Shown here in pieces: positions 8,874 through 24,000 of a DNA stretch of 24,000 nucleotides. Location: the NCBI GenBank assembly GCA_049700455.1, contig JBNAVJ010000007.1, forward strand, positions 70,397-94,396, read 5' to 3'. The DNA comes from Ignavibacteria bacterium (lineage in GTDB: Bacteria; Bacteroidota; Ignavibacteria; Tepidaquicellales; Tepidaquicellaceae). The position numbers and the translations under genes were made by a program. Below the pieces are notes generated by a model, which made no database searches, was not told the DNA's origin, and saw only the letters and a list, made by a program, of their open reading frames with translations. Position 1 is the stretch's first letter. Every line of letters starts with the position of its first letter.

Positions 8874-10082
8874 TTATTCAAGTATCTCCGTAACAACACC
8901 AGCTCCAACCGTTCTACCACCTTCACGAATTGCAAACTTCAACCCTTTTTCCATAGCAATTGGTGCAATCAATTCTACTTTTAATTTGTCAACATTATCG
9001 CCAGGCATAACCATATCAACTCCTTCAGGCAAAGTAACCACTCCTGTAACATCTGTGGTACGGAAATAGAACTGAGGCCTATAGTTTGATGAGAACGGAG
9101 TGTGACGACCACCTTCATCCTTTGACAAAACGTAAACCTGACACAAGAACTTAGTATGCGGTGTTATTGAACCTGGTTTTGCAAGAACCATTCCTCTTTC
9201 TACTTCTTTTTTATCCACACCTCTGAGAAGTATTCCACAGTTATAACCAGCAACGGCTTCTTTTACCGTCTTGTTAAACATTTCAGTACCAGTCACAACT
9301 GTTTTCTTGTGTTGACCAAGCCCAATAATCTCTACTTCATCACCTACTTTTGTCTTACCTCTTTCAACTCTACCGGTAGCTACAGTTCCACGGCCAGTAA
9401 TTGAAAACACATCTTCAATTGACATCAAGAATGGTTGGTCTATATCTCTTTGAGGTTCTGGAATATAGTTGTCAACCGCATCCATCAATTCCCAGATACA
9501 TTTGAATCTTTCATCTTCAGCAGGAACATTTTCATCAAGACCGGCTTCCATAGCTTTTAATGCTGAACCACGAATAATTGGGATTTCATCACCGGGAAAT
9601 TCATATTTAGTGAGAAGTTCTCTGATTTCCATTTCAACCAATTCAAGAAGTTCTGGATCAGCTGCATCTACTTTATTCAGAAATACAACAATTCTGGGGA
9701 CTCCTACTTGACGCGCAAGCAATATATGTTCTCTTGTTTGTGGCATAGGACCGTCTGTTGCAGCAACAACAAGAATAGCACCATCCATCTGAGCAGCACC
9801 AGTAATCATATTTTTAATATAGTCAGCGTGTCCGGGACAGTCTACGTGGGCATAGTGTCTTTTCTCTGTTTCATACTCAACGTGGGCTGTTGCAATCGTA
9901 ATACCACGAGCTTTTTCTTCCGGTGCTTTGTCAATTTCATCAAATTTTTTGACCTTGGCTTTACCTTTCCTCGCCAATGCCATCGTAATTGCAGCGGTTA
10001 ACGTAGTTTTTCCATGGTCAACGTGACCAATCGTTCCTATGTTAACATGCGGTTTGGTTAGAACCAGTTCTTCTTTTGCCAT
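8874..10082 (-). CDS. tuf: Translation elongation factor Tu
   Basis: 402-aa ORF with GTPase motifs [14 protein letters not shown] and NKVD, plus the full EF-Tu domain II/III sequence. An AGGAG Shine-Dalgarno-like element lies upstream. Confidence 0.97.
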
Positions 10083-10141
10083 TGTACTGTTTCTCCTATA
10101 TAGTTTATAGTTTATTATTAAAAAATTCTGTTGCCTTTCAG

Positions 10142-10215
10142 TGGGTCAGGGAGGAATCGAACCTCCCACCTCGTGCTTATAAGGCACGCGCTCTAACCGT
10201 CTGAGCTACTGACCC
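10142..10215 (-). tRNA. tRNA-Ile with genomically encoded anticodon UAU (TAT)
   Basis: The reverse complement folds as GGGTCAG TA GCTC AGACGGTT AGAGC G CGTGC CTTATAA GCACG AGGTG GGAGG TTCGATT CCTCC CTGACCC A, with all four stems perfect. The body (GTAGCTCAG..GGTTAGAGCGC..GCCT.ATAAGC..GAGGT) is that of bacterial tRNA-Ile. Positions 34-36 read TAT. Confidence 0.8.
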
Positions 10216-10242
10216 AGACTTCCCGATGACGGGGGAAAGCTA

Positions 10243-10273
10243 TTGTTACAAAAAGCCAATGTTTTTGTAACAA
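10243..10273. repeat. Perfect 12-bp inverted repeat (AT-rich hairpin) between fusA and tRNA-Ile
   Basis: ttgttacaaaaa (10243-10254), a 7-nt loop (gccaatg), then tttttgtaacaa (10262-10273). No U-tract follows on the minus (transcribed) strand, so it is not a canonical terminator. It could be a processing site or an operator, or it could overlap an internal promoter for tRNA-Ile and tuf (minus strand TTGTTA-17 nt-TGTAAC). Confidence 0.5.
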
Positions 10274-10354
10274 CAACTTTTATAGAGCCGCTATTTGTGC
10301 CTGATACGACAAGGCTAACACCAGCCTAACCCTTTTAAAATATATTTTAATGAA

Positions 10355-12442
10355 CTATTTTTCTTTACCCCTGACTTTCTCTACAATTTGTTCAGAGATA
10401 TTTGTGGGAGTTTCATCATAATGTGAAAACTGCATTGTATAAATCGCACGCCCCTGAGTAATAGACCTCAATGCTGTTGCATATCCAAACATCTCTGCAA
10501 GTGGAACAAGAGCCCTAATAACCTGAGCATCTGCTCTTTGAAAAATTCCTTCAATACGTCCTCTTCTTGAATTCAAATCTCCCATAACTTCTCCCATATA
10601 CTCATCTGGAGTAACTACTTCAACTTCCATAATAGGTTCTAATAGCACAGGATCAGCTTTCTTTGCAGCTTCTTTAAAAGCAATAGAACCCGCTATTTTA
10701 AAAGCCATCTCCGAAGAATCTACTTCGTGTGTTGAACCATCAAATAATTTTGCTTTTATATCTTCCATCGGGTATCCAGCAAGCACCCCATTTTTCATTG
10801 CCTCCTGAATACCTTGAGATACCGCTGGGATGTATTCCTTAGGAATAACCCCTCCAACCACTGCATTTTCAAAAATAAAACCTTTTCCTTTTTCATTTGG
10901 TTCAATCTCTATCCACACATGACCATATTGACCTCGCCCACCTGATTGACGGATAAATTTTCCTTCCTGTTGAACTTTTTTTCGTATCGTTTCTTTATAA
11001 GCAACTTGGGGTTTACCAACATTAGCATCAACTTTGAACTCTCGTTTTAACCTGTCAACAATAATCTCAAGATGAAGTTCTCCCATTCCAGAAATAAGGG
11101 TCTGACCGGTTTCTTCATCAGTACTTACTTTGAACGTTGGATCTTCATCTGACAACTTAGATAGAGATTCACTTAATCTATCACTATCTGCCTTTGTTTT
11201 AGGCTCAATTGCAATTTGAATAACAGGCTCTGGAAAAGTTATTTTTTCAAGCACAATCGGATCGTCCTCTGAGCACAAAGTATCACCCGTTTTTGTATGT
11301 TTTAAACCAACTGCGGCAGCAATATCTCCACAATAAACTTCTTTAAGGTCTTCTCTGTGATTAGCATGCATCTCAAGAATTCTGCCAATTCTTTCCCGCT
11401 TACCTGTGTTTGAATTAAAAACATAACTCCCAGCAGATAATTTACCAGCATATACTCTAAAAAAACATAATTTACCTACATAAGGATCAGTCATTATCTT
11501 AAACGCAAGAGCAGTAAACTTTTCGTCATCACTTATCTGACGCGTTATATGGTCATCTGTATGTAAGTGATGTCCCCATACTTCTCCTATATCAAGAGGT
11601 GACGGCAAAAGTTCTACTACCTTATCAAGGAGATTTTGAACCCCTTTGTTCTTAAATGATGAACCACATAACACAGGGATAATTTTTACCTCTAAGGTAG
11701 CTTGACGTAAAACCCTTATTATCTCCTGGTTCGTTATTTCTTTACCTTCCAAAAATTTTTCCAATAATGTGTCATCTATATCTGAAACAGCTTCAAGTAG
11801 TTTTTGTCTGTATTCATTTGCCTGGTTAATGTAAGATTTGGGAATCTCAATATCATCATATTTTGCACCAAGTGTGTCATCTCTGAAAATCCTTGCTTTC
11901 ATTGTAATCAAGTCAATAATACCGGCAAACATCTCTCCCTGTCCTACTGGTAATTGAATAGGGACGGCATTGGCTTTTAACCTTTCTTTCATCATTTCCA
12001 CAACATTCAAGAAATTCGCGCCTGTTCTATCCATTTTATTTACAAAAGCAATTCTTGGGACCTTATATTTATCAGCCTGACGCCATACTGTTTCAGACTG
12101 AGGTTCCACTCCACCTACTGCACAAAATAATGCAATGGAGCCATCCAGTACTCTTAAAGAACGTTCAACTTCAGCGGTAAAATCTACGTGCCCTGGGGTA
12201 TCAATAATATTTATTCTATGATCATTCCAGAAACAAGTAGTTGCTGCACTTGTAATAGTAATACCACGCTCTTTTTCCTGCTCCATCCAATCCATTGTTG
12301 CTGCACCTTCGTGGACTTCACCCATTCTATGAACCTTACCAGTATAATACAAAATACGTTCGGTTGTAGTAGTTTTCCCCGCATCAATATGCGCCATTAT
12401 TCCAATGTTTCGAACTTTCTCTATAGGTACACTACGTGGCAT
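10355..12442 (-). CDS. fusA: Translation elongation factor G
   Basis: 695-aa ORF with motifs [17 protein letters not shown] and NKMD, and the full five-domain EF-G sequence. It lies between rpsG and tuf as in the str operon. Confidence 0.97.
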
Positions 12443-14844: not shown

Positions 14845-15666
14845 CTAACTCCCCACCCCTTCTGATGAATCAAGTATAGATTTGAGAGACTTCGTAACAC
14901 TCTGGTTACTCATAGCATCTCTTAATTTTGACTTAAACTCATTCAGATCCTGTAAGAGATACAATTTCCCGTCCTCTGCAATTGAGATATTGCCTGTCTC
15001 TTCTGATATGATAATTGCAATAGCATCTGACTGTTCACTAATCCCAAGTCCAGCTCTGTGTCGCGTACCCAAATTACGATTATTTACCAATTGAACTTCC
15101 GAAAGTGGTAAGACACATCTTGCGGCTTCAATCTTATTTCCATTAATAATAACAGCCCCATCGTGTAGAGGTGATTTAGGATAAAAAATACTTACAAGCA
15201 ATTCTTTATTTATTCTTGAATCAAGTTTTTCTCCGGTTTCTACTATATTTTGTAATCCTGTTGTCCTGGTTATCACTATCAGAGCACCCCAACCGTTACT
15301 CTGTATTTCAAGACAGGCATCGACAACTTCAGTAACATTTTCGTTAAGGTCGATTCTTAAAAATAAACGTGCAAATTTTGACCTTCCTATTAATAACAAA
15401 ATTCTTCTAATCTCAGGTTGGAAAAGTATTATCATTGCAATTACCCAGATATCTGTAACTTTTCCAAGAATCCAACTCATTACCTGTAAGTTTAATGCCT
15501 GCGCAATAAATGATATACTCAATATCAAAATTATAGCAGTAAAAATTTGAAATGCCATTGTACCTCTCATTACCTTGTACAGTTTATAAAATACATAGGT
15601 AATAATAAGTACATCTATAATATCAACGAGCTTTATTGTTAGAAAGCCAATTTTAAATAGTTCCAT
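14845..15666 (-). CDS. cdaA: Membrane-anchored diadenylate cyclase (c-di-AMP synthase), CdaA/DacA type
   Basis: 273-aa ORF with three N-terminal hydrophobic helices followed by a DAC (DisA_N) domain. Motifs are GALIVI, LHDGAVII and GTRHRAGLGISEQSDAIAIIISEETG (the catalytic DGA and RHR motifs). Confidence 0.9.
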   Translation of the reverse strand: MELFKIGFLTIKLVDIIDVLIITYVFYKLYKVMRGTMAFQIFTAIILILSISFIAQALNLQVMSWILGKVTDIWVIAMIILFQPEIRRILLLIGRSKFARLFLRIDLNENVTEVVDACLEIQSNGWGALIVITRTTGLQNIVETGEKLDSRINKELLVSIFYPKSPLHDGAVIINGNKIEAARCVLPLSEVQLVNNRNLGTRHRAGLGISEQSDAIAIIISEETGNISIAEDGKLYLLQDLNEFKSKLRDAMSNQSVTKSLKSILDSSEGVGS

Positions 15667-15697
15667 TTATGTTCTCCCTATCATCTGCTCACTTCAA

Positions 15698-17074
15698 TTA
15701 ATGTGCTGACCTGCCTTTGGGCAGAGTATTCCATAATCTACTCATAACCAGCGCTCCAATAATAGCAAAGGGGATAGGCCAGAGTTGCCATGCCTGCCAG
15801 CCTAACGGGAAAATGAAAACACTCAAGAAAAATGGATTCAGCGCACTGGTCAAGTATTGAAATCCATCAATTAATCCTGCTGCGGTAGCTGCTGCTTTTC
15901 TTCCTCCAAAATCCATCGAAGCGGCTCCCCCTACCATCCCGTGGGCGCCATTTACGAAAAATGATAACAACATTATTAAAGCTGATGCAGCATATGGTCC
16001 GAATTTAAAATAATCAGAAAGAAAAAATAATAGAAGGCTAACTACCATTCCAATAAATCCAAAAACAATCACCGGAGCTCTCCTGCCACCATAAATCCTA
16101 TCCGAAGTAATTCCAAAAGCAAATCCCCCTAAAATACCTAATATTGCAATTCCCCATGCTGTTACCTGATAAGCGGTATCAATTGTTGATACACTATATA
16201 CCTCTTTAAAATATAAGGGATACCATGCATCAACAACGCTACGTCTTACAAAACCAATCATCATAGAACTAACACCTATCATCCACATTACAGGACTTGC
16301 AAAAACTTTTGTTAAAACTTCCTTCAGACTGACTTTTTCATTACTCATATCATCACCATCCCCGGTATCTCTTCCCTCATAACCGGCTTCTTTAGGAGAA
16401 TCCTTCACAAAAAAAATCGTGAGTAAAAATACAACTGTCGTTAAAGCTGCCGGTCCCCAAAATGCCCATTGCCAGCCAAACCAATATGCGAATAAAGGAG
16501 TACCTGAAAAAGCAAGAATTAATCCAAAACGAATTAGAATACCAAATATAGCAGCAAATGTTCCTCTCTCTCGTATATGAAACCATTGAGCATTGATTTT
16601 CACAATTGACAATGCGCCAAACGCCTGAAAATACCCATTTAAGGACCAACAAATTGCAAGCAATACCAATAAAAGTTTTTTATCTCCCCACGCAAGAACA
16701 CTCGGCTTTATAAGATTTGAATCCTGCCAAACAGCAGGTTGTAAAACAGCAAATCCTGCAGCGCCAAAAATAAAATTCATTAAAATAACACCAACAGAAC
16801 CGATTAGAAAAGCTTTTTTCCCACCTATCTTATCTGCAATAGGTCCATTTAGCACGACTGCAAGTCCATACACAAGGGGCAAGAGAGTTTCAAATATGCC
16901 AAGATCACTTTTAGTCCATCCGAACACCTGCTGCAAAGTCGGGGCATTTGCAGCAAAATTGTATCTTGTCATATAAAAAAGCGAGTATAAAAACCCTATA
17001 ATAATCCAGTTCTGAAAACGACGGGCTCGATAGGCAGGTTCTCTGAAATTTGCAGGAATTACCACTTCTGTCAT
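15698..17074 (-). CDS. MFS transporter, organophosphate:Pi antiporter (OPA; GlpT/UhpC-like) family
   Basis: 458-aa ORF with about 12 predicted hydrophobic helices. The N-terminal region YRARRFQNWIIIGFLYSLFYMTRYNFAANAP......W.KSDLG.......L.YG......G.IADK resembles GlpT/UhpT (YRRLRWQIF.G.F.GYAAYYLVRKNFALA) by recollection. The substrate cannot be called. Confidence 0.65.
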   Translation of the reverse strand: MTEVVIPANFREPAYRARRFQNWIIIGFLYSLFYMTRYNFAANAPTLQQVFGWTKSDLGIFETLLPLVYGLAVVLNGPIADKIGGKKAFLIGSVGVILMNFIFGAAGFAVLQPAVWQDSNLIKPSVLAWGDKKLLLVLLAICWSLNGYFQAFGALSIVKINAQWFHIRERGTFAAIFGILIRFGLILAFSGTPLFAYWFGWQWAFWGPAALTTVVFLLTIFFVKDSPKEAGYEGRDTGDGDDMSNEKVSLKEVLTKVFASPVMWMIGVSSMMIGFVRRSVVDAWYPLYFKEVYSVSTIDTAYQVTAWGIAILGILGGFAFGITSDRIYGGRRAPVIVFGFIGMVVSLLLFFLSDYFKFGPYAASALIMLLSFFVNGAHGMVGGAASMDFGGRKAAATAAGLIDGFQYLTSALNPFFLSVFIFPLGWQAWQLWPIPFAIIGALVMSRLWNTLPKGRSAH

Positions 17075-17290
17075 CTGATTTTTTTATTTTAAAATATTAA
17101 AATAACAATTATCCACCTTTTTTGTTACTCAAAAGTTAAAGTATTACTATAGACAATAACTTTACAAATTATCTTAATCTATTAAAATGAAAACTATATT
17201 TTTTTCAGAAACATAGTTATACACCTTGTGTGGGGGGAATCTTATACTTCAAAAAGAAACTTTTCAGGACGTCATCTGGAGGATTAGCAT

Positions 17291-17620
17291 TTAATAAGAT
17301 TCTCGATCATCAGAAAATCTTGCCACAATCTTTTCTCTTATAAATGCAGGTGAAGGAATACCTTCTGGATAGTAACGACAGGAGAGTGTTGGATATACCG
17401 GTGATTCTACCCCTATTAGGTCTTCATTATTTATTAACAAAGTAGGGGATCCTCTAAATTTATATTTGACCGCATCTTCCTGGTCTTTAATAAGCCGATA
17501 AATAACATCAATAAAATCTTCAAGCCCTTTAATAGCTTCTTTTAAATTATCCATCATAATCTGATAGTTAGGGCATCCTTCAAAATATTGAAATTCCACT
17601 TTTAGTTTTGGCTGTACCAT
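17291..17620 (-). CDS. Small thioredoxin-fold protein with a single-Cys C-P-N-Y active-site-like motif
   Basis: 109-aa ORF. The pattern is beta-strand + GCPNY (FQYFEGCPNYQIMMDNLKEAI), then F.GSPTLLINNEDL (cis-Pro-like SPT), then LSCRYYPEG.PS. This recurring Y..GCPN...GSPT...CR.Y arrangement is a small Trx-like family that I recall being vaguely or wrongly annotated. It is the last gene of the 4-gene operon, 18 nt after the previous stop. Confidence 0.5.
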   Translation of the reverse strand: MVQPKLKVEFQYFEGCPNYQIMMDNLKEAIKGLEDFIDVIYRLIKDQEDAVKYKFRGSPTLLINNEDLIGVESPVYPTLSCRYYPEGIPSPAFIREKIVARFSDDRESY

Positions 17621-17638
17621 ATATTTATTTTTATATTT

Positions 17639-18985
17639 TTACGGTTTATTAATGTCTGTTCTCCCTATCCAATTATAATCATCAAATGAACTAAAAAGTT
17701 CCTGAAATATCTTATAGTAATAATATTCCTCTTTTGAATTAATTTCCCATCCGTTTTTCAATACACGATTTTTTCTAAAATCTTCATCTTTAATTATCTC
17801 GTTACAGTAATATTCAAGTTTATTCTCAACTCCACTACCCTGCCACAATTTCTGCTTTGGTCGCTTAATAATATAGATTGGTAATATGTGTTTAAGGGTC
17901 TCTTTTAAAATCCATTTCTCGGTTTTATTCTTAATTTTAAGTTGAGGACTAATATTTTTTACATAATCTACTACTTCCCTGCATAAAAAAGGGACATAAG
18001 TTCTCACACCAAAAGCTGCCGAACATCTATCAACCCGTTGCAATGCGGTATTGTGTAAATTATAAAATATCAATTGAAGTTCTTTTTCTAACTTTTTGTA
18101 TGTAAGTTTCTGTAAGTAATAATATCCTGCAAAAAGTTCGTCAGCACCTTCACCAGAAAGGATTGCCTCAACATATTCAGCAGCCTTACGTACTGCAAGA
18201 TAATGTATCAGACTTGATCTTATAAGCCTCGCATCGAAAGACTCAAGGTGATAAATTACCTGAGGTAAAATCTTTACAACTTCATTAATTTCAGCTTTAA
18301 TTGGGTAATAAGTAATTTCAAACTCTTTTGCAAGTCTTTTACTATACTCCAGATCGCTTGCTCCAGCAAAACCGCACGAAAATCCATAAATTTTATCTGT
18401 AAATTTGCGAGCAAATGCTACTATTGTGCTTGAATCAAGTCCCCGCGATAATAAAATTCCTATTGGTTTTTCATTAGTAATACATTTCCTTATTGAATCT
18501 TCAAGCAAGCTATAGAGTCGGCTTTTTATCTGTTCAATATCTTCCTGGTTATATTTTAATGTCCTGAATATATCTAACAGCTTTTTAACTTTGCCCTTAA
18601 CAATTACCCCGCCCGGCGGGACGGGTCTAACATTTTTAACAAAGCCCATCAACCCTTTAACTTCAGACGCAAAATAAAGGTTATTTTCCTCATCATATCC
18701 AAAATATATGGGCACAACCCCAGCAAAGTCACGATTTAGATTAATCGTACCATCGATTTCTTCTGCTTTAGCATAATGTTCTCCGGGCAAGAGTTCATCA
18801 ATAACTTTATATTTGTTTGTTGGGTTTTCTCGAATGCTGTTTTCTGCCGTATTAACTGATACACCCAGTGTGGAGTGAGAAGTAGAAAATACTTCAATTT
18901 TGTTCCACCGATGTTTCATTTTGGTTAACATTGAACTAACAAGTTCTCCTCTATCAGGAAGTGAAACACCCGCTATTGCACCCAT
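17639..18985 (-). CDS. Asparagine-synthetase-B-family adenylating enzyme (beta-lactam-synthetase-like paralogue); glutaminase nucleophile absent
   Basis: 448-aa ORF. The C-terminal synthetase domain has a PP-loop region ILLSRGLDSST (canonical SGGLDSS), plus LSGEGADELFAGY and later blocks. The N-terminal Ntn domain is shortened. It begins MGAIAG instead of MCGIxG and keeps RDFAGVVPIYFGYDEENNLYFASEVKGL. The start lies 2 nt after the stop of the upstream gene. Confidence 0.8.
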   Translation of the reverse strand: MGAIAGVSLPDRGELVSSMLTKMKHRWNKIEVFSTSHSTLGVSVNTAENSIRENPTNKYKVIDELLPGEHYAKAEEIDGTINLNRDFAGVVPIYFGYDEENNLYFASEVKGLMGFVKNVRPVPPGGVIVKGKVKKLLDIFRTLKYNQEDIEQIKSRLYSLLEDSIRKCITNEKPIGILLSRGLDSSTIVAFARKFTDKIYGFSCGFAGASDLEYSKRLAKEFEITYYPIKAEINEVVKILPQVIYHLESFDARLIRSSLIHYLAVRKAAEYVEAILSGEGADELFAGYYYLQKLTYKKLEKELQLIFYNLHNTALQRVDRCSAAFGVRTYVPFLCREVVDYVKNISPQLKIKNKTEKWILKETLKHILPIYIIKRPKQKLWQGSGVENKLEYYCNEIIKDEDFRKNRVLKNGWEINSKEEYYYYKIFQELFSSFDDYNWIGRTDINKP

Positions 18986-18987
18986 AG

Positions 18988-20631
18988 TTATTTATTGATG
19001 ATTATTTGTTTAAGACGTTTTTCTTCAGAGAGTATTTCTCCTGTTTCAGGATCGATAGCGTACCAGGCACCATTGATAAGATTTGTTTTGATATTGCCAC
19101 ATAAATGTTCGTTGCCACGAAAATGTGGCGTGTCAAGTATACCTATTTTAATAGCATCAGCAAGAACCCCTGCATCAGTTAAGGGATCTTCAGCTCTTCC
19201 ATCTCCCAATTTTACAATAGCCTCAATTAAGGTCTCGGCTTCAGATATTAATTCATTTTTTCTATTTATTATTAATTTGTCATCTTTAATATCAGGTAGA
19301 TCTCTCGCAACATTTTTAATAACTCCATAAACAATATTGCAACTTTCTATAAGTTCCTCCGGATAAACAGCATGGTCGCCTTCACAATAAGCTACTACAT
19401 GTAATATGTGCGGTTTCAACCATAGACTTACCATTGCTGATGCTGCAAGTTGCCCCTTTGCGATTTCCGGATTCGGTGAAAAATGAGCGATTCCAGCTCT
19501 AACTTCTCTAAAAACTTCAAAATCATTACTGCTTAGTCGATTTATCATTTCATCCTTTGCCTTCATCTTAGCAAGGTCCATTCTTGGAGAAGTTCCTGGA
19601 GGAGTGTTAAACATATATTGTGAGACATAGTGTTTAACTCCCACTTTCTTTGCATTATAAGCAGCTATGTAAGCCATTGCAACAGCCAGCGAATCATGGG
19701 CATCTCTCAAACTCCACTGATGAGACTCATTAACTTCAACCGGAATTCTTCGTTCAGCATAATATTTCATTACTCGTTGGTTCTCAGAAATAGCTTCTTT
19801 AAGTAACCTCTCAGAACGTTTATCCATTACGCTATACCAGGTTAGAGGTATAGCAGCCCAGGCATTATTTATTGTTTCAATACTCATTTTCGCCCATTTC
19901 ATCAGGTCGTTTGTGCCACTATAGCATCTCATTAAAGGGAAATTTCCTGTTCGTGATTCTTCATAGATTCTCTTTAAATCCTCTGGTGTTCGTACAGGTA
20001 CTCCTCCAGCCCCATCAAGTTCCTTTCTCATCCGTTCAGGTTTGAAGAAAAATTCCTGTGCATTTTGATCAGTTCCAAGTGAAATTACATCAAGGACTTT
20101 TGCTTCAGCAATTTTTTTGACACCTTCTATTGTTTCTCTTAAAGAGGGTCTTCCAAAATGATGCCTTAAAATCGGGAGTGGATAGCGGTTGCGTATTCTT
20201 TCTACCAATGTTTGAGGATAAGTTTGACTGACATCTTTTCCAGTGGTGCCCCTAAGATATTCCCTTATAGAATCAATGCTTTCGGTTCCATCAAATACTT
20301 TCTCAAAGAAGGATTTTTTTCCTGCTACTTTTGCTACTGATGGCGTCCCTCCAAATATAAATTTAATATTGTTAATGCTTCTTTTCTTAACCTCCTTTAT
20401 CAATTCATCAAAGAGTGTTTCAGCAACTGAAGGAGTAAGGCGATAACTAATTGCTACAATTGCTGGTTGTAATTTTTCAACTTCTAAAACTAACCTACTA
20501 ACTTTCACAGCCGGACCAAGAGAGTACGTCCTAAAACCTTCTTCTTCAGCAATCGAAAGAAAATGATTTAAACCCCCTATATGGACACAGTTACCCAGTG
20601 CACATCCAAGTATTAGTTTGTTACCTTTCAT
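18988..20631 (-). CDS. Fusion protein: N-terminal cobalamin(B12)-binding domain + C-terminal glutamate-mutase epsilon (methylaspartate mutase E)-like barrel; putative B12-dependent carbon-skeleton mutase of unknown substrate
   Basis: 547-aa ORF. Residues 1-~130 match the MutS/GlmS B12-binding domain motif for motif and with almost the same spacing: xxHxxG (CVHIGG, His17), S-x-L (ISYRL, ~62) and GG (IFGGT, 94-95). In my recollection of Clostridium MutS these fall at His16, SSL 61-63 and GG 91-92. The remainder shows collinear blocks with GlmE: ILRHHFGRPSLRETIEGVKKI~QPRAGVALLDEHIELLRYL, VLDVISLGTDQNAQE~GADFLPSTIDAYTRQ and FPLMRCYSGTND~LPLQARHGTPD. There is no CxxxCxxC motif, so it is not a B12-radical-SAM enzyme. 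Confidence 0.6.
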   Translation of the reverse strand: MKGNKLILGCALGNCVHIGGLNHFLSIAEEEGFRTYSLGPAVKVSRLVLEVEKLQPAIVAISYRLTPSVAETLFDELIKEVKKRSINNIKFIFGGTPSVAKVAGKKSFFEKVFDGTESIDSIREYLRGTTGKDVSQTYPQTLVERIRNRYPLPILRHHFGRPSLRETIEGVKKIAEAKVLDVISLGTDQNAQEFFFKPERMRKELDGAGGVPVRTPEDLKRIYEESRTGNFPLMRCYSGTNDLMKWAKMSIETINNAWAAIPLTWYSVMDKRSERLLKEAISENQRVMKYYAERRIPVEVNESHQWSLRDAHDSLAVAMAYIAAYNAKKVGVKHYVSQYMFNTPPGTSPRMDLAKMKAKDEMINRLSSNDFEVFREVRAGIAHFSPNPEIAKGQLAASAMVSLWLKPHILHVVAYCEGDHAVYPEELIESCNIVYGVIKNVARDLPDIKDDKLIINRKNELISEAETLIEAIVKLGDGRAEDPLTDAGVLADAIKIGILDTPHFRGNEHLCGNIKTNLINGAWYAIDPETGEILSEEKRLKQIIINK

Positions 20632-20642
20632 TTTTGTATAAA

Positions 20643-21752
20643 TTATATTTCCCCAATAGCTAATAGCCTTAATTGTTTCAAACTCAATTTATTGATATTA
20701 AGTCTTTCCACTGTCCTGCCTTCTTTCCAATAATCAGTCTGAGTTAAACAGGATGCCAGATTAATTATAGAATCAATAATTGGTGTCTCAACATTAAACT
20801 TCCTCCCAACAGAAGAAATCGGTATCAAACTTGTCGGGACATCTTCCGTAATAAATCTCATATTTAACCTTGTAGGAGCTTTTATATCCCTATATCCTGG
20901 ATTTGCTTGCATTGCCTCGTATAAGTGTTCTCCTGCTGCATTATAAGCAAGATATAACCATTCCCGGGCTGTCAGAGCTCTAATACCAAGCGCCTCAGCA
21001 ACTTTGACTCTTTCTTCATCAATCTTTTCCAGGACTTTAGCAACAGACCTTGATACACCCTGAACATAAAATTGAAATTCAGCATCGTCTTCAATCCATC
21101 CTGCATTCAAGACGCACAAAGCAGGATGAAAAACAGCTCCAATATTATCAAAACTTGTTTTAAAAATATTATCACCCGCCACAAACTGAGGGTATGCAAT
21201 TCTGATTCTCTTTAGAACTTCAGGAATCAAATGCGCCCGAACAGAAGCAACAGGAATACTGTTTTTTATACGAAAAATCTTTGCTTGAGCAGGACCAATT
21301 ACGCGGGAAGCGTAAATAAATGTTTGTGCCTCAGCAACTATCACATTCCTGTCAACATTATGAGAATTTAACACTTGTTGAAATTCTAAAGCACCAAATG
21401 TTCTCCCTGGATTTAATATTATAATTTGTCCATCCTCTAAATAAGGATAACATAGCTCTGCAATATCTCGATGCCCCGTTGCAGGAACAGCAACCATTAT
21501 AATATCTACACCAGTAATAGCCTCCTCTATATTTGTTGTAGCAACAGGAATTTTACCAAAACCTTCAAGCCCAAAATCACTTTCAATTCTCACACCCCCC
21601 ATTGAAATTACACCCCACAACCGTTCACTGGTTCGGTTAAAAAGATGCACCTCAAACCCCATTAAAGCTATGTGACCTGCCATAGCTAACCCCCCATGCC
21701 CAGCACCTATAACAGCAAATTTAGGTTTCTTTTTTGATGAGACTCTCTCCAT
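20643..21752 (-). CDS. Opine dehydrogenase-family NAD(P)H oxidoreductase (octopine/nopaline DH family; N-(1-carboxyalkyl)-amino-acid forming)
   Basis: 369-aa ORF with an N-terminal Rossmann motif FAVIGAGHGGLAMAGHIALMG. By recollection it is collinear with Arthrobacter N-(1-D-carboxyethyl)-L-norvaline dehydrogenase: IIILNPG..GALEF, the conserved catalytic-region His in NIGAVFHPA, and the C-terminal block NPGYRDIKAP.RLN.RF..EDVPT.L.P.S..GR...V.TP.ID....L.S......D...EGRT.E.L. A strong SD GGGAGG lies 4 nt before the ATG. Confidence 0.85.
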   Translation of the reverse strand: MERVSSKKKPKFAVIGAGHGGLAMAGHIALMGFEVHLFNRTSERLWGVISMGGVRIESDFGLEGFGKIPVATTNIEEAITGVDIIMVAVPATGHRDIAELCYPYLEDGQIIILNPGRTFGALEFQQVLNSHNVDRNVIVAEAQTFIYASRVIGPAQAKIFRIKNSIPVASVRAHLIPEVLKRIRIAYPQFVAGDNIFKTSFDNIGAVFHPALCVLNAGWIEDDAEFQFYVQGVSRSVAKVLEKIDEERVKVAEALGIRALTAREWLYLAYNAAGEHLYEAMQANPGYRDIKAPTRLNMRFITEDVPTSLIPISSVGRKFNVETPIIDSIINLASCLTQTDYWKEGRTVERLNINKLSLKQLRLLAIGEI

Positions 21753-21774
21753 ATTCCCTCCCGTAATTTATCAT

Positions 21775-21803
21775 AATCTAAAATAATTTTATTAAAATGG
21801 CAA
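21775..21803 (-). promoter_or_regulatory. Candidate promoter of the opine-DH/mutase/AsnB-like/Trx-like operon
   Basis: The minus strand reads TTGCCA (21803-21798; 5 of 6 match to TTGACA), a 17-nt spacer, then TAGATT (21780-21775; 4 of 6). This lies about 22 nt upstream of the ATG and just before the GGGAGG SD. It sits in the 273-nt divergent region shared with scpA. Confidence 0.35.
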
Positions 21804-22025
21804 GAATAAGAAGAGAAGTTTTTTATAAAGTCTCTGTACCCTAATATGTTAATTCAAATCAATAAACTTTATTTATAACTTATATATTAGATTACTTGAA
21901 CAAAATTAGCATAAGGCTATGTTTAGATACAACAACTTAAATATTTCAATAAATAAAACTAAAATTTTGTCTGATATGCTTTTCTGAATTTAAATTGTAG
22001 TCTGCATTTGTTATCTTAATACTTT

Positions 22026-22814
22026 ATGGATTTAGGAGACAACAACATTAAGGAAGTGCTTGAGGAGTCAACACAAAAATCAAGCCCAAAAGATTATTGG
22101 GCACAACTTGATGAATTTCAGGGCCCTCTCGATATACTTTTACATTTTGTAAAAGAGGAAGAACTTAACATTTATGATATACCAATTGCAAAAATTACAA
22201 AAGATTTTCTGGATTATATTGATTATATGCATTCTCTCGACATTGAGGTTGCTGGCGAATTTTTGCTTATGGCTTCTGAACTAATGAAAATCAAGGCACG
22301 AATGCTTTTACCACGCGAAGAGGAAGGCGACAAAGAAATCGAAGAAGATCCAAGATTAACTCTGGTTCGTAAGTTGTTAGAATATAAGAGATTCAAGGAT
22401 GTAAGTCTTGAGTTATCATTATTGGAAGATAATGCACGAAAACAATATTTTCGAGGGTTTTATAAATACGACGAAAAATTTTATGAATATAATGTAACCG
22501 AAGATTATAGTCTAAAAAATCTTACTATTTATAATCTCATTTCTAATCTTAAGCAAACTCTTCTAAATCTTAAACCGGGAACCATACACCCCATTGAACT
22601 ACTTACTGTTACCCCTGACATTCAGAGAGAATTCCTGATAGAATTCTTGCAGAAAAGAAGTGAAATAGATTTTTCAGAACTTATAGCCCAAATGGATGAA
22701 AAACTTTTGATTATTTGTACTTTTCTTGCAATACTGCAACTTGCTCTTGATGGGTTCTTGAAAATTGAGATTCTTGATAAACCAACAAACTTTAAAATAG
22801 TACGTTTTACCTGA
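22026..22814 (+). CDS. scpA: Segregation and condensation protein A (SMC kleisin)
   Basis: 262-aa ORF. The hallmark N-terminus is LDEFQGPLDILLHFVKEEELNIYDIPIAKIT..FL.Y, followed by GEFLLMASELMKIKARMLLP. The C-terminal winged-helix region is present. Confidence 0.9.
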   Translation: MDLGDNNIKEVLEESTQKSSPKDYWAQLDEFQGPLDILLHFVKEEELNIYDIPIAKITKDFLDYIDYMHSLDIEVAGEFLLMASELMKIKARMLLPREEEGDKEIEEDPRLTLVRKLLEYKRFKDVSLELSLLEDNARKQYFRGFYKYDEKFYEYNVTEDYSLKNLTIYNLISNLKQTLLNLKPGTIHPIELLTVTPDIQREFLIEFLQKRSEIDFSELIAQMDEKLLIICTFLAILQLALDGFLKIEILDKPTNFKIVRFT

Positions 22815-23648
22815 TTGGAAACGCCAGGAATAAAAAATATAGTCGAAGCTATTTTGTTTGCATCAGAAAATGAAATGACACTCAAAGAGATTAAAGATAT
22901 TCTTGATGCAATGAAAATTGATATTACCCTGACTGAAATTGAACAATATATTAACATATTAAATCAGGAGTACGATAAAAACAATAATGCATTTCATATT
23001 ATCGATATTGCGGGAGGATATCAGTTTGCCACAAGGAAACAATATGCAGGTTTTATAGGTAAACTACATACAGAAGCGCATAGGAAAAAACTTTCACCAT
23101 CAGCACTTGAGACTCTGGCAATAATAGCTTACAAGCAACCAATAACTCGTGCTGAAATTGAATTTATTCGGGGAGTTAATGTTGATTATATTGTAAACTC
23201 CCTTCTTGAAAGGGACTTGATAACAATAAAAGGGCGCGCACAGGGACCTGGCAGGCCTATACTTTATGGTACTACAAATAACTTTCTGAAAGTACTTGGT
23301 TTAAACTCCCTTGATGACTTACCTCGTCTACGTGAAATAAATGAAATTCTTAAGGAAGATAAAATTGAAGGCATTACCGAAGAAGATATTGATTTATTTA
23401 ATTCAATAAATTACCCTAAGGTAACTGAACCAGAGGATTTACTAAATAAAGAATCTAATGAAAGTCAGACACAGGAAAGGACAGGTGCAACATTACTTAC
23501 TCTATCATACGAAGAGGAAAACGCCATTAATGCTACAAGTACCACCTCGGAACAGAACAATCAACCATCAGGAACTAATAATAATATAACAGAAGAAAAA
23601 AACAACTTAGAAAATATCTCTGGAGAATCTAACAGAAAGGATGAATAG
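22815..23648 (+). CDS. scpB: Segregation and condensation protein B, with a long low-complexity C-terminal tail
   Basis: 277-aa ORF with IVEAILFASENEMTLKEI and S.SALETLAIIAYKQPITRAEIEFIRGVNVDYIVNSLLERDLI. The start is TTG at 22815, directly abutting the scpA TGA (TGATTG). The last ~90 aa are Asn/Ser/Thr/Glu-rich. Confidence 0.88.
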   Translation: METPGIKNIVEAILFASENEMTLKEIKDILDAMKIDITLTEIEQYINILNQEYDKNNNAFHIIDIAGGYQFATRKQYAGFIGKLHTEAHRKKLSPSALETLAIIAYKQPITRAEIEFIRGVNVDYIVNSLLERDLITIKGRAQGPGRPILYGTTNNFLKVLGLNSLDDLPRLREINEILKEDKIEGITEEDIDLFNSINYPKVTEPEDLLNKESNESQTQERTGATLLTLSYEEENAINATSTTSEQNNQPSGTNNNITEEKNNLENISGESNRKDE

Positions 23649-23650
23649 TT

Positions 23651-24000
23651 ATGGCACAGCAATCCAATAACTCAAATTTGATGAGACTAAACAGGTTTAT
23701 TAGCAATTACACAAAATTAAGTAGGCGCAAAGCTGATGAATATATAAGAGAAGGAAGAATAACTATTAATAATATTACTGTTTCTGACTTTGGGATTAAG
23801 ATTGACCCCAAAAAAGATGTGGTGGCAGTGGATGGTGAAGTAATCAAAGCTAAAAGGAGAAAAAATATATATATTGTTCTTTACAAACCCGAGAAAACCC
23901 TCACTACTGTAAAAGACAATAAAGGTCGAACAACAGTCCTTGATTTTATCGATATTAAAGAAAAAATTTTCCCTATTGGGAGACTTGATTATGAGACAAC
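23651..24000 (+). CDS. rluB: Pseudouridine synthase, RsuA/RluB family (partial; C-terminus lies outside the window)
   Basis: The ATG at 23651 opens MAQQSNNSNLMRLNRFISNYTKLSRRKADEYIREGRITINN (S4 RNA-binding domain). It continues to YIVLYKPEKTLTTVKDNKGRTTVLDFI and the catalytic-Asp motif PIGRLDYET. scpA-scpB-rluB synteny is common. It is absent from the ORF track because it is truncated. Confidence 0.75.
   Translation, partial: MAQQSNNSNLMRLNRFISNYTKLSRRKADEYIREGRITINNITVSDFGIKIDPKKDVVAVDGEVIKAKRRKNIYIVLYKPEKTLTTVKDNKGRTTVLDFIDIKEKIFPIGRLDYET

Follow-up and report, generated by a model that had tools for sequence, protein, structure and literature searches.

What does a homologue of asparagine synthetase B (AsnB) do when it lacks the N-terminal cysteine with which that enzyme hydrolyzes glutamine, and when a glycine of its ATP-pyrophosphatase loop (PP-loop) has become an arginine? 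The question is raised by a 448-residue protein, referred to here as P0001, encoded in a 24,000-nucleotide stretch of an Ignavibacteria bacterium genome (GenBank assembly GCA_049700455.1, contig JBNAVJ010000007.1, positions 70,397 to 94,396 of the forward strand; this whole stretch is the window), directly downstream of genes for an opine dehydrogenase (ODH) and a B12-binding, mutase-like protein. An initial annotation of the window had presented the absent cysteine and the altered loop as one package, and this does not hold: loss of the cysteine is an old trait of a large family that crosses phyla and is not specific to this species, whereas the arginine is a real, recent substitution private to it. 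On balance we favor, though not strongly, a reading in which P0001 would act as an ammonia-using amide synthetase on an aspartate-derived intermediate of the ODH-B12 pathway, possibly in weakened form in this species.

Loss of the glutaminase site and retention of the synthetase site

The reading frame of P0001 is open on the minus strand only, the plus-strand reading of 17639-18985 being full of stop codons (features are listed in Table 1). Its product begins M-G-A-I-A-G-V-S, and residues 178–186 are L-L-S-R-G-L-D-S-S. The ATG is separated by 2 nt ('ct') from the TAA of the upstream gene, and no upstream start can give M-C-G because an in-frame TAA lies 9 nt 5′ of the ATG and the stop-to-stop frame has just 450 codons. 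Both the absence of such a start and the features listed in the initial annotation, which gave no strand (a 448-aa frame, an MGAIAG start, a shortened N-terminal domain, no NGEIYN block and an SRGLDS loop), are confirmed on the minus strand. Pfam assigns the protein to Asn_synthase (E 5e-55), with a remnant of GATase_7 at residues 78–113 that stays below threshold (20.8 bits against a cut-off of 25). In NCBIfam it is nearest to AsnB yet falls under both asparagine-synthase equivalog cut-offs (286 against 499 bits for NF006949 and 193 against 267 bits for TIGR01536), and it reaches neither of the cut-offs for lasso-peptide/macrolactam cyclases (53.8 against 525 bits for NF033535 and 37.6 against 300 bits for NF033561).

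Family members were aligned with canonical AsnBs from the fetched loci, and the numbering used below agrees with that of E. coli AsnB at landmark motifs. Cys1 is absent from P0001 and from the short family to which it belongs, R49 is replaced, and a gap of ~48 residues relative to canonical AsnB deletes N74-G75-E76 and D98 from the whole short clade. The N-terminal domain of P0001 keeps HRx and RDxxGxxPxYxG / FASEVKxL and is without the N74-D98 block. In the synthetase domain, S234, G236, D238, S239, S346, G347, E348, D351, E352, Y357, R387, K429, R447 and K449 are kept in every aligned sequence; residues of this domain present in P0001 are, in its own numbering, E279, D282, E283, Y288, R317, K357, R375 and K377, and the domain contains the clade signature HNTALQRVDR. 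Loss of E398 and R400 is restricted to the Cys-less clade, as expected because the glutaminase site has been abandoned. In human asparagine synthetase (ASNS) the equivalents of these two residues are at the domain interface beside the glutamine pocket, those of D351/E348 hold the alpha-amino/alpha-carboxylate groups of beta-aspartyl-AMP, and that of K449 is essential (PMC6748925). With no Cys1, a deleted glutamine-binding block and no E398/R400, glutamine hydrolysis by P0001, which the initial annotation had called very unlikely, is, judging from the sequence, ruled out.

An AlphaFold2 (AF2) model of P0001, built on the family alignment, has a predicted local distance difference test score (pLDDT) of 87.5, and its sole disordered stretch is a low-confidence loop at the deletion scar (residues 47–59). 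Among solved folds the best match is E. coli AsnB (1ct9, template-modeling score (TM) 0.86), followed by human ASNS; beta-lactam synthetase (BLS), carbapenam synthetase (CarA) and TsnB9 rank lower, at ~16% identity (TM 0.70–0.78 for BLS). A sequence search of the PDB gives 1ct9 at E 5e-47, BLS at 6e-12 and CarA at 2e-11. P0001 is closer to genuine asparagine synthetase than to the cyclizing paralogues, and the resemblance to BLS and carbapenam synthetase to which the initial annotation had pointed proves weak, the more so as the AsnB-type Glu is kept.

An old Cys-less family

A search of 5.8 billion proteins places P0001 in a dense family of ~445–450 aa whose members, where named, are called 'asparagine synthase-related protein' and which has sources in Anaerolineae, Ignavibacteria/Melioribacteraceae, Bacteroidales, Atribacterota, Aminicenantes and Asgard archaea. 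Nearly all of 119 relatives start M-[A/S/T/G]-[G/A]-I-[A/V]-G, with no Cys. The second residue varies across the family (Ala ~58%, Ser 25%, Thr 9%, Gly 2%), so there is no conserved nucleophile that substitutes for Cys. P0001 has each of the features by which the clade is recognized, namely the N-terminal pattern, the ~48-residue N-domain deletion and HNTALQRVDR, and it is nested in the Cys-less clade with 97–99% support by the Shimodaira–Hasegawa-like approximate likelihood-ratio test (SH-aLRT); the phylogeny used here and below is a quick tree.

Confinement to genomes with the ODH-B12 pair

On the minus strand of the window the gene order is ODH, B12 protein, AsnB-like gene, a thioredoxin-fold protein and a major facilitator superfamily (MFS) transporter. 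Neighbor linkage was tested by tblastn against 80 related loci, and the AsnB-like gene is adjoined by the ODH in 21 loci and by the B12 protein in 18. One or both adjoin the gene in ~20 of ~40 loci of the family. The linked loci span Ignavibacteriota, Bacteroidota, Chloroflexota, Bacillota, Planctomycetota, Thermodesulfobacteriota, Armatimonadota and an Asgard archaeon, and the cultured Caldanaerobacter subterraneus (Bacillota) is among them. Recurrent neighbors were also sought in family loci with no ODH-B12 nearby and none was found; the linkage is instead at the level of the genome.

There are three sets of observations on this point. First, all five genomes examined that have a stand-alone AsnB-like copy carry an adjacent ODH-B12 pair elsewhere. 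Second, among 151 genomes sampled evenly from the window's phylum, the B12 protein is present only in the window's genome and one other, and the same two carry the Cys-less AsnB-like gene, adjoining the B12 protein in both. Third, 56 of 121 Anaerolineae genomes have a match to the B12 protein at E<=1e-40, ~47 of them of orthologue strength, and the family profile finds the AsnB-like clade in eight of the 121, all eight among the orthologue-strength positives and four of them adjacent. (P0001 alone is a poor probe in Anaerolineae, with four matches against eight by the profile, because its sub-clade is a long branch.) In the genomes sampled, the Cys-less family is confined to those carrying the ODH-B12 pair (5/5, 2/2 and 8/8).

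This distribution bears on the proposal that P0001 is an ammonia-dependent housekeeping asparagine synthetase, functionally unrelated to its neighbors. Such an enzyme would account for true AsnB being closest in sequence and fold, for the presence of the aspartate-holding D351, E348 and E352 together with R387, and for the finding that about half of the family copies are not beside ODH-B12. It is nonetheless improbable in our judgment, given that the family occurs only in ODH-B12 genomes, that no copy was found in 30 genomes of the same family or order, and that five further full-length AsnB paralogues are encoded in the genome, all with an intact PP-loop and at least four starting MCG. The scores under both NCBIfam asparagine-synthase cut-offs and the replacement of conserved D384 by Ala also speak against it.

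Grades of glutaminase loss and the proposed reaction

Three glutaminase grades are apparent in the alignment of AsnB-like proteins encoded directly after an ODH and a B12 protein. In the first, those of loci L046 (Bacillota) and L040 (Armatimonadota, Fimbriimonadaceae) start M-C-G/A and keep R49, N74-G75-E76 and D98, and that of L046 matches GATase_7 at E 2e-42. In the second (L041, L029 and L032–L036) the N-terminal domain has its full length and the C1/R49/N74-G75-E76/D98 residues are lost. In the third, which is the short clade including P0001, the ~48-residue glutaminase block is deleted outright. The cassette-linked proteins are not monophyletic, and the Cys-bearing ones group, with weak support, with ordinary 500-aa AsnBs; they are therefore treated here as functional counterparts, not as proven orthologues, of the Cys-less clade.

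Since versions with an intact glutaminase exist within the cassette, the step is taken to be transfer of an amide nitrogen and not ring closure of the BLS kind. The likely nature of the substrate is suggested by the neighboring ODH, which can be aligned over its whole length with 1BG6 from Arthrobacter and in which ArODH positions 111 and 198 are occupied by Arg117 and Gly205. An Arg/Gly pair at these positions switches preference to L-aspartate, as seen with reciprocal double mutants (Telek et al. 2024, PMC10787698), and the window ODH is predicted to form or oxidize an aspartate-type opine with pyruvate. Because it has this L-aspartate pair, the substrate of the AsnB-like enzyme is probably aspartate, a branched aspartate or an N-carboxyethyl-aspartate-type opine, and an aspartate-type moiety in the pathway would fit the retained aspartate-holding residues of P0001. 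We propose that P0001 would adenylate the side-chain carboxylate of an aspartate-like substrate to give a beta-aspartyl-AMP-type intermediate, and that this would be converted to the amide with free ammonia and not with ammonia derived from glutamine. Cassettes with an intact glutaminase would draw the nitrogen from glutamine and the others from free ammonia, P0001 would serve as an accessory third enzyme of the ODH and B12 mutase-like cassette, and Arg181 may lower the handling of ATP and pyrophosphate (PPi), leaving a weakened or altered enzyme.

A bolder version, which we think unlikely, makes the clade the amide-forming last step of a B12-dependent pathway for an amidated, possibly branched, opine, with the enzyme retooled in this lineage. 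The N-carboxyethyl-aspartate-type opine would then be made or broken down for stress or osmotic adaptation of anaerobes. Retooling would mean a changed substrate or nucleotide and not damage, with which the long stem branch of the sub-clade (see below) and an Arg possibly in direct contact with phosphate might be connected.

The same evidence can be set against a role in which P0001 cyclizes or ligates amines in the manner of BLS and CarA, either by closing a lactam on an N-substituted aspartate or by using an amine other than ammonia. Cys1 is absent from BLS and CarA as well, an N-carboxyalkyl-aspartate made by the ODH would in principle offer a secondary amine in the beta position relative to the activated carboxylate, D384 to Ala could give room for an N-substituent, and D-Ala-D-Ala ligase is an alternative neighbor of the B12 family in Zhang et al. 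2009 (PMC2667541). It seems quite improbable all the same: Glu279, the equivalent of AsnB E348, is invariant in the clade, similarity to BLS and CarA is remote (E ~1e-11 and 16% identity in the fold match), and the cassette-linked homologues with a complete Cys1-bearing glutaminase imply ammonia transfer in those genomes. At the position of AsnB 348, BLS and CarA presumably have the Tyr of a Tyr-Glu dyad.

A private arginine in the PP-loop

P0001 retains five of the six positions of SGGxDS and has Arg in place of Gly at position 2. The loop is SGG[L/I]DS in 119 of the 120 best family proteins, including orthologues at 77, 71 and 69% identity, and 86 of 87 AsnB-superfamily open reading frames of the fetched loci read SGGxDS; in both sets the exception is P0001. 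The loop was readable by pattern search in 133 of 148 representatives at the 50% level, of which 132 have Gly-Gly, one has SAGLDS and none has Arg. The SAGLDS carrier, the 455-aa Cys-less relative P0146, is the sole other variant at position 2 among several hundred homologues. The initial annotation had proposed looking for both of its features in orthologues: the non-Cys start is there, family-wide, and SRGLDS is not, the three orthologues mentioned reading SGGxDS. A strain-specific Arg was among the outcomes that it had named as refuting its view, and the Arg has indeed turned out to be private to the species, though it is not assembly noise.

The last point requires comment, as the codon lies inside a G-rich run (TCG CGG GGA, with the codon at window 18445-18443) and CGG is a minor codon, accounting for 20 of 362 Arg codons of the window genes, so that a sequencing or assembly error hiding a true SGGLDS might be suspected. 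We regard this as very improbable. The identical 448-aa protein with the same CGG is present in a second assembly, GCA_049969535.1, on a contig of a different size (39.6 kb) with one synonymous difference from the window over 7347 bases, which makes a random assembly error unlikely, and the change is a substitution and not an error of homopolymer length. The closest orthologue (L082) has TCA GGA GGA at the PP-loop; CGG, described in the initial annotation as one substitution from GGG, is two changes from the GGA that this orthologue uses. The minority use of CGG is consistent with a point change of recent date. When JGI metagenome contigs were scanned by exact pattern for the surroundings of the Arg181 codon, the variable base being entered as N, no copies came up.

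Decay or selection

The ratio of nonsynonymous to synonymous substitution rates (dN/dS) of the AsnB-like gene against the syntenic L082 region is 0.20. This lies far below neutrality and is the highest among 13 genes, with 0.05 for the ODH and 0.10 for the B12 protein; the AsnB-like component evolves faster than its ODH and B12 partners and is sometimes lost. P0001 departs from the family at four of 93 columns conserved in >=95% of sequences, and three of these departures (H226Y, R361K and F380L) are shared with its clade, only G181R being private. Tajima relative-rate counts for P0001 and its Gly-bearing sister, with two outgroups, are 38 against 30 and 37 against 32, and are not significant. 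Arg181 aside, no signs of decay are seen in the gene, nor would any be expected yet if inactivation were very recent; the opinion in the initial annotation that the gene is not decaying survives to this extent, in that there is no obvious wreck. Recent horizontal import of the gene was also considered and is unsupported, the G+C content at third codon positions (GC3) being uniform across the 13 syntenic genes.

These data must also be read with the idea that P0001 is catalytically dead or dying, with Arg181 blocking pyrophosphate binding, so that the gene would be a young pseudogene-to-be or have a non-catalytic role. Of the alternatives to the preferred reading this is the strongest, though we think it unlikely. 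The near-invariance of Gly in the three sets of homologues (119/120, 86/87 and 132/133) and the highest dN/dS among the syntenic genes would both be accounted for, as would three observations on relatives: a Melioribacteraceae copy has an in-frame stop and a frame change beside intact ODH and B12 genes, the entire sub-clade of P0162 persists with a destroyed synthetase site, and most ODH-B12 carriers are without the enzyme. The intact frame, the start like that of the family and the presence of all other catalytic residues point the other way, as do the single private deviation in 93 conserved columns, the lack of a lineage-specific rate excess over the Gly-bearing sister and the retained translational coupling to the upstream gene.

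Several points weigh against the amide-synthetase reading that we prefer. First, Gly is otherwise almost invariant at the position of Arg181, and the substitution may abolish activity. Second, the substrate pocket differs in part from the AsnB pocket, since Ala replaces D384 throughout the Cys-less clade and Ile replaces K376 in the short clade, P0001 included (position 376 is variable in full-length relatives). Third, the sub-clade of P0001–P0004 has a very long stem branch in the tree (1.59 changes/site), and P0001 is only 41% identical to its Melioribacteraceae homologue, while the ODH and B12 protein of that genome are 80% and 72% identical to those of the window; given the long stem, the function of the sub-clade may have shifted. 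Fourth, the P0162 sub-clade persists without a synthetase site, and non-catalytic roles therefore exist among the relatives. Fifth, ~39 of the 47 pair-carrying Anaerolineae are without the AsnB-like enzyme, as are 17 of 20 inspected ODH-B12 loci at the neighboring position, from which it follows that the enzyme is dispensable for the core pathway; the ODH-B12 pair is the core and the AsnB-like enzyme is accessory. Finally, that ammonia is the donor, what the substrate is and how Arg181 acts are inferred, whereas the data show directly that P0001 belongs to the family, that it has lost the glutaminase site and kept the synthetase site, that the family is linked to the cassette at genome level, and that the Arg is real and private.

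Relationship to known systems

AsnB homologues that have abandoned glutamine hydrolysis are known mainly as cyclases in antibiotic or peptide biosynthesis. The clade of P0001 is unlike these in keeping the whole of asparagine-synthetase chemistry, and every grade of glutaminase loss is found among its cassette-linked relatives. With E. coli AsnB (1CT9) and human ASNS (6GQ3; EC 6.3.5.4) P0001 shares the two-domain fold (TM 0.83–0.86), the ATP/beta-aspartyl-AMP residues S346, G347, E348, D351, E352, Y357, R387, K429 and K449, and a C-terminal SKEExxYYxIF segment. It differs from AsnB in being without Cys1, R49, N74-G75-E76-D98, E398 and R400, in having Ala for D384, Ile for K376 and Arg for Gly235, and in being tied to the ODH-B12 cassette rather than to asparagine supply. 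BLS (1JGT/1MBZ) and CarA (1Q15) are likewise AsnB-derived two-domain proteins that have lost the N-terminal Cys and do not hydrolyze glutamine, but their N-terminal domain is of full length where the clade of P0001 has its ~48-residue deletion, and they are ~16% identical to P0001 (E ~1e-11).

The B12-binding family was predicted by Zhang, Rodionov, Gelfand and Gladyshev in 2009 (PMC2667541), who listed 'asparagine synthase (glutamine-hydrolyzing)' near it in several organisms, and a two-gene ODH-B12 operon was described in Halothermothrix and other thermophilic anaerobes by Mavromatis et al. 2009 (PMC2626281). The same pair lies directly upstream of the P0001 gene. The association of ODH, B12 protein and AsnB has thus been in print since 2009. 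Neither paper mentions that the AsnB homologue linked to the pair is in most cases truncated and Cys-less, that it is restricted to pair-carrying genomes, or that Cys-bearing versions in some phyla stand in for Cys-less ones in others, and no characterized member of the Cys-less clade or of the three-gene cassette was found in the literature. The window ODH shares the Arg/Gly L-aspartate determinants with mODH-45, mODH-582 and others (Telek et al. 2024, PMC10787698), a comparison that concerns the neighboring ODH and not the AsnB-like gene and is based on the two determinant positions.

The clade is of interest because it is bound to the ODH-B12 pair, known since 2009, and an aspartate-type amidating third enzyme would narrow the candidate substrates for the whole pathway. 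Arg181 is of narrower interest, as a natural test of what the PP-loop tolerates at an almost invariant glycine.

Other features of the window and its relatives

The coordinates of the features are given in Table 1. The 109-aa protein encoded downstream has no homologue in the 80 related loci, and its membership in the cassette is doubtful. Other recurrent neighbors of the AsnB-like gene are CitMHS-type anion transporters, CLC channels, DUF5698/DUF2179 membrane proteins and MarC; the transporters and channels among them are the only pointer here to a possible role in salt stress. An Rfam scan of window positions 15000-24000 for RNAs and riboswitches gave only a chance miRNA match and no riboswitch, and a scan for sigma-70 promoters and terminators gave nothing beyond the shuffled expectation.

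Table 1. Coordinates (window positions) of the AsnB-like gene, its domains and its neighbors.
Feature	Position	Strand	Basis or remark
AsnB-like gene P0001, 448 aa	17639..18985	minus	Translation; Asn_synthase Pfam; PDB 1ct9 match; AF2 model
Reduced N-terminal domain, ~residues 1-135	18581..18985	minus	Remnant of N-terminal nucleophile (Ntn) glutaminase; alignments, model, sub-threshold GATase_7
Synthetase domain, ~residues 147-448	17642..18547	minus	AsnB catalytic and nucleotide-binding residues retained
PP-loop, residues 180-185, S-R-G-L-D-S	18431..18448	minus	Corresponds to S234-S239 of E. coli AsnB
Codon CGG, Arg181 (AsnB Gly235 position)	18443..18445	minus	Species-private; also in GCA_049969535.1
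Opine dehydrogenase (Octopine_DH family), lead gene	20643..21752	minus	Pfam 3e-45; alignment to 1BG6
547-aa fused B12-binding/mutase-like protein, upstream partner	18988..20631	minus	Often beside AsnB-like gene in other loci
109-aa thioredoxin-fold/DF-family-like protein, downstream	17291..17620	minus	Operon layout common to window and L082 only

The five other full-length AsnB paralogues of the window's 2.39-Mb genome are 612–662 aa long and lie on contigs C1 (129996-148004) and C2 (38748-67376), corresponding to loci L083–L087, three of them clustering inside 20 kb of a single contig. The PP-loop is SGGxDS in all five, at least four begin M-C-G, and an AsnA homologue is absent from the genome.

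The Melioribacteraceae copy with the in-frame stop is at 10001-11312 of locus L027, in a metagenome-assembled genome (MAG; JBBFLD010000001.1). Its AsnB-like gene has an in-frame TAA at about codon 343 and a frame change near the 3′ end, its ODH and B12 genes are intact, and their products are the most similar to those of the window among named genomes (80% and 72%). The copy is probably a pseudogene or an assembly error.

Relatives 63–87% identical to P0162 make up, with it, a sub-clade (P0162 and P0271–P0298, ~29 clusters of ~463 aa) from which the synthetase site has disappeared too. Its PP-loop reads SG[N/D/S]L[N/T/A/S]S, FDEGAxE stands in place of SGEGxDE, and the equivalent of K449 is gone. 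In the three contigs inspected (L110 8001-9392, L111 8001-9407 and L112 8001-9398) the surrounding genes are stress genes: Usp, cold-shock, CarD, PadR, CitMHS and DUF5698/DUF2179. Two of the three also have trehalose genes alongside (Glyco_transf_20 and an MGH1-like hydrolase, with Trehalose_PPase in one). From its motifs and neighbors, this sub-clade looks like a conserved pseudoenzyme in an osmolyte/stress neighborhood.

Tandem full-length AsnB paralogues, one starting M-C-G and the other Cys-less (M-S/G/T/A-G), are found in L043, L049, L051, L058 and L076. The Cys-less partners fall into two distinct clades, both well supported and both outside the family of P0001, and the pairs may be heteromeric amidotransferases. 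Finally, eight Anaerolineae genomes (G173, G247, G216, G265, G189, G260, G178 and G174) have frames of ~1220–1390 aa related to the B12 protein, in which a segment is 37–40% identical to B12-protein residues ~105–465; they are a much larger relative of its barrel part.

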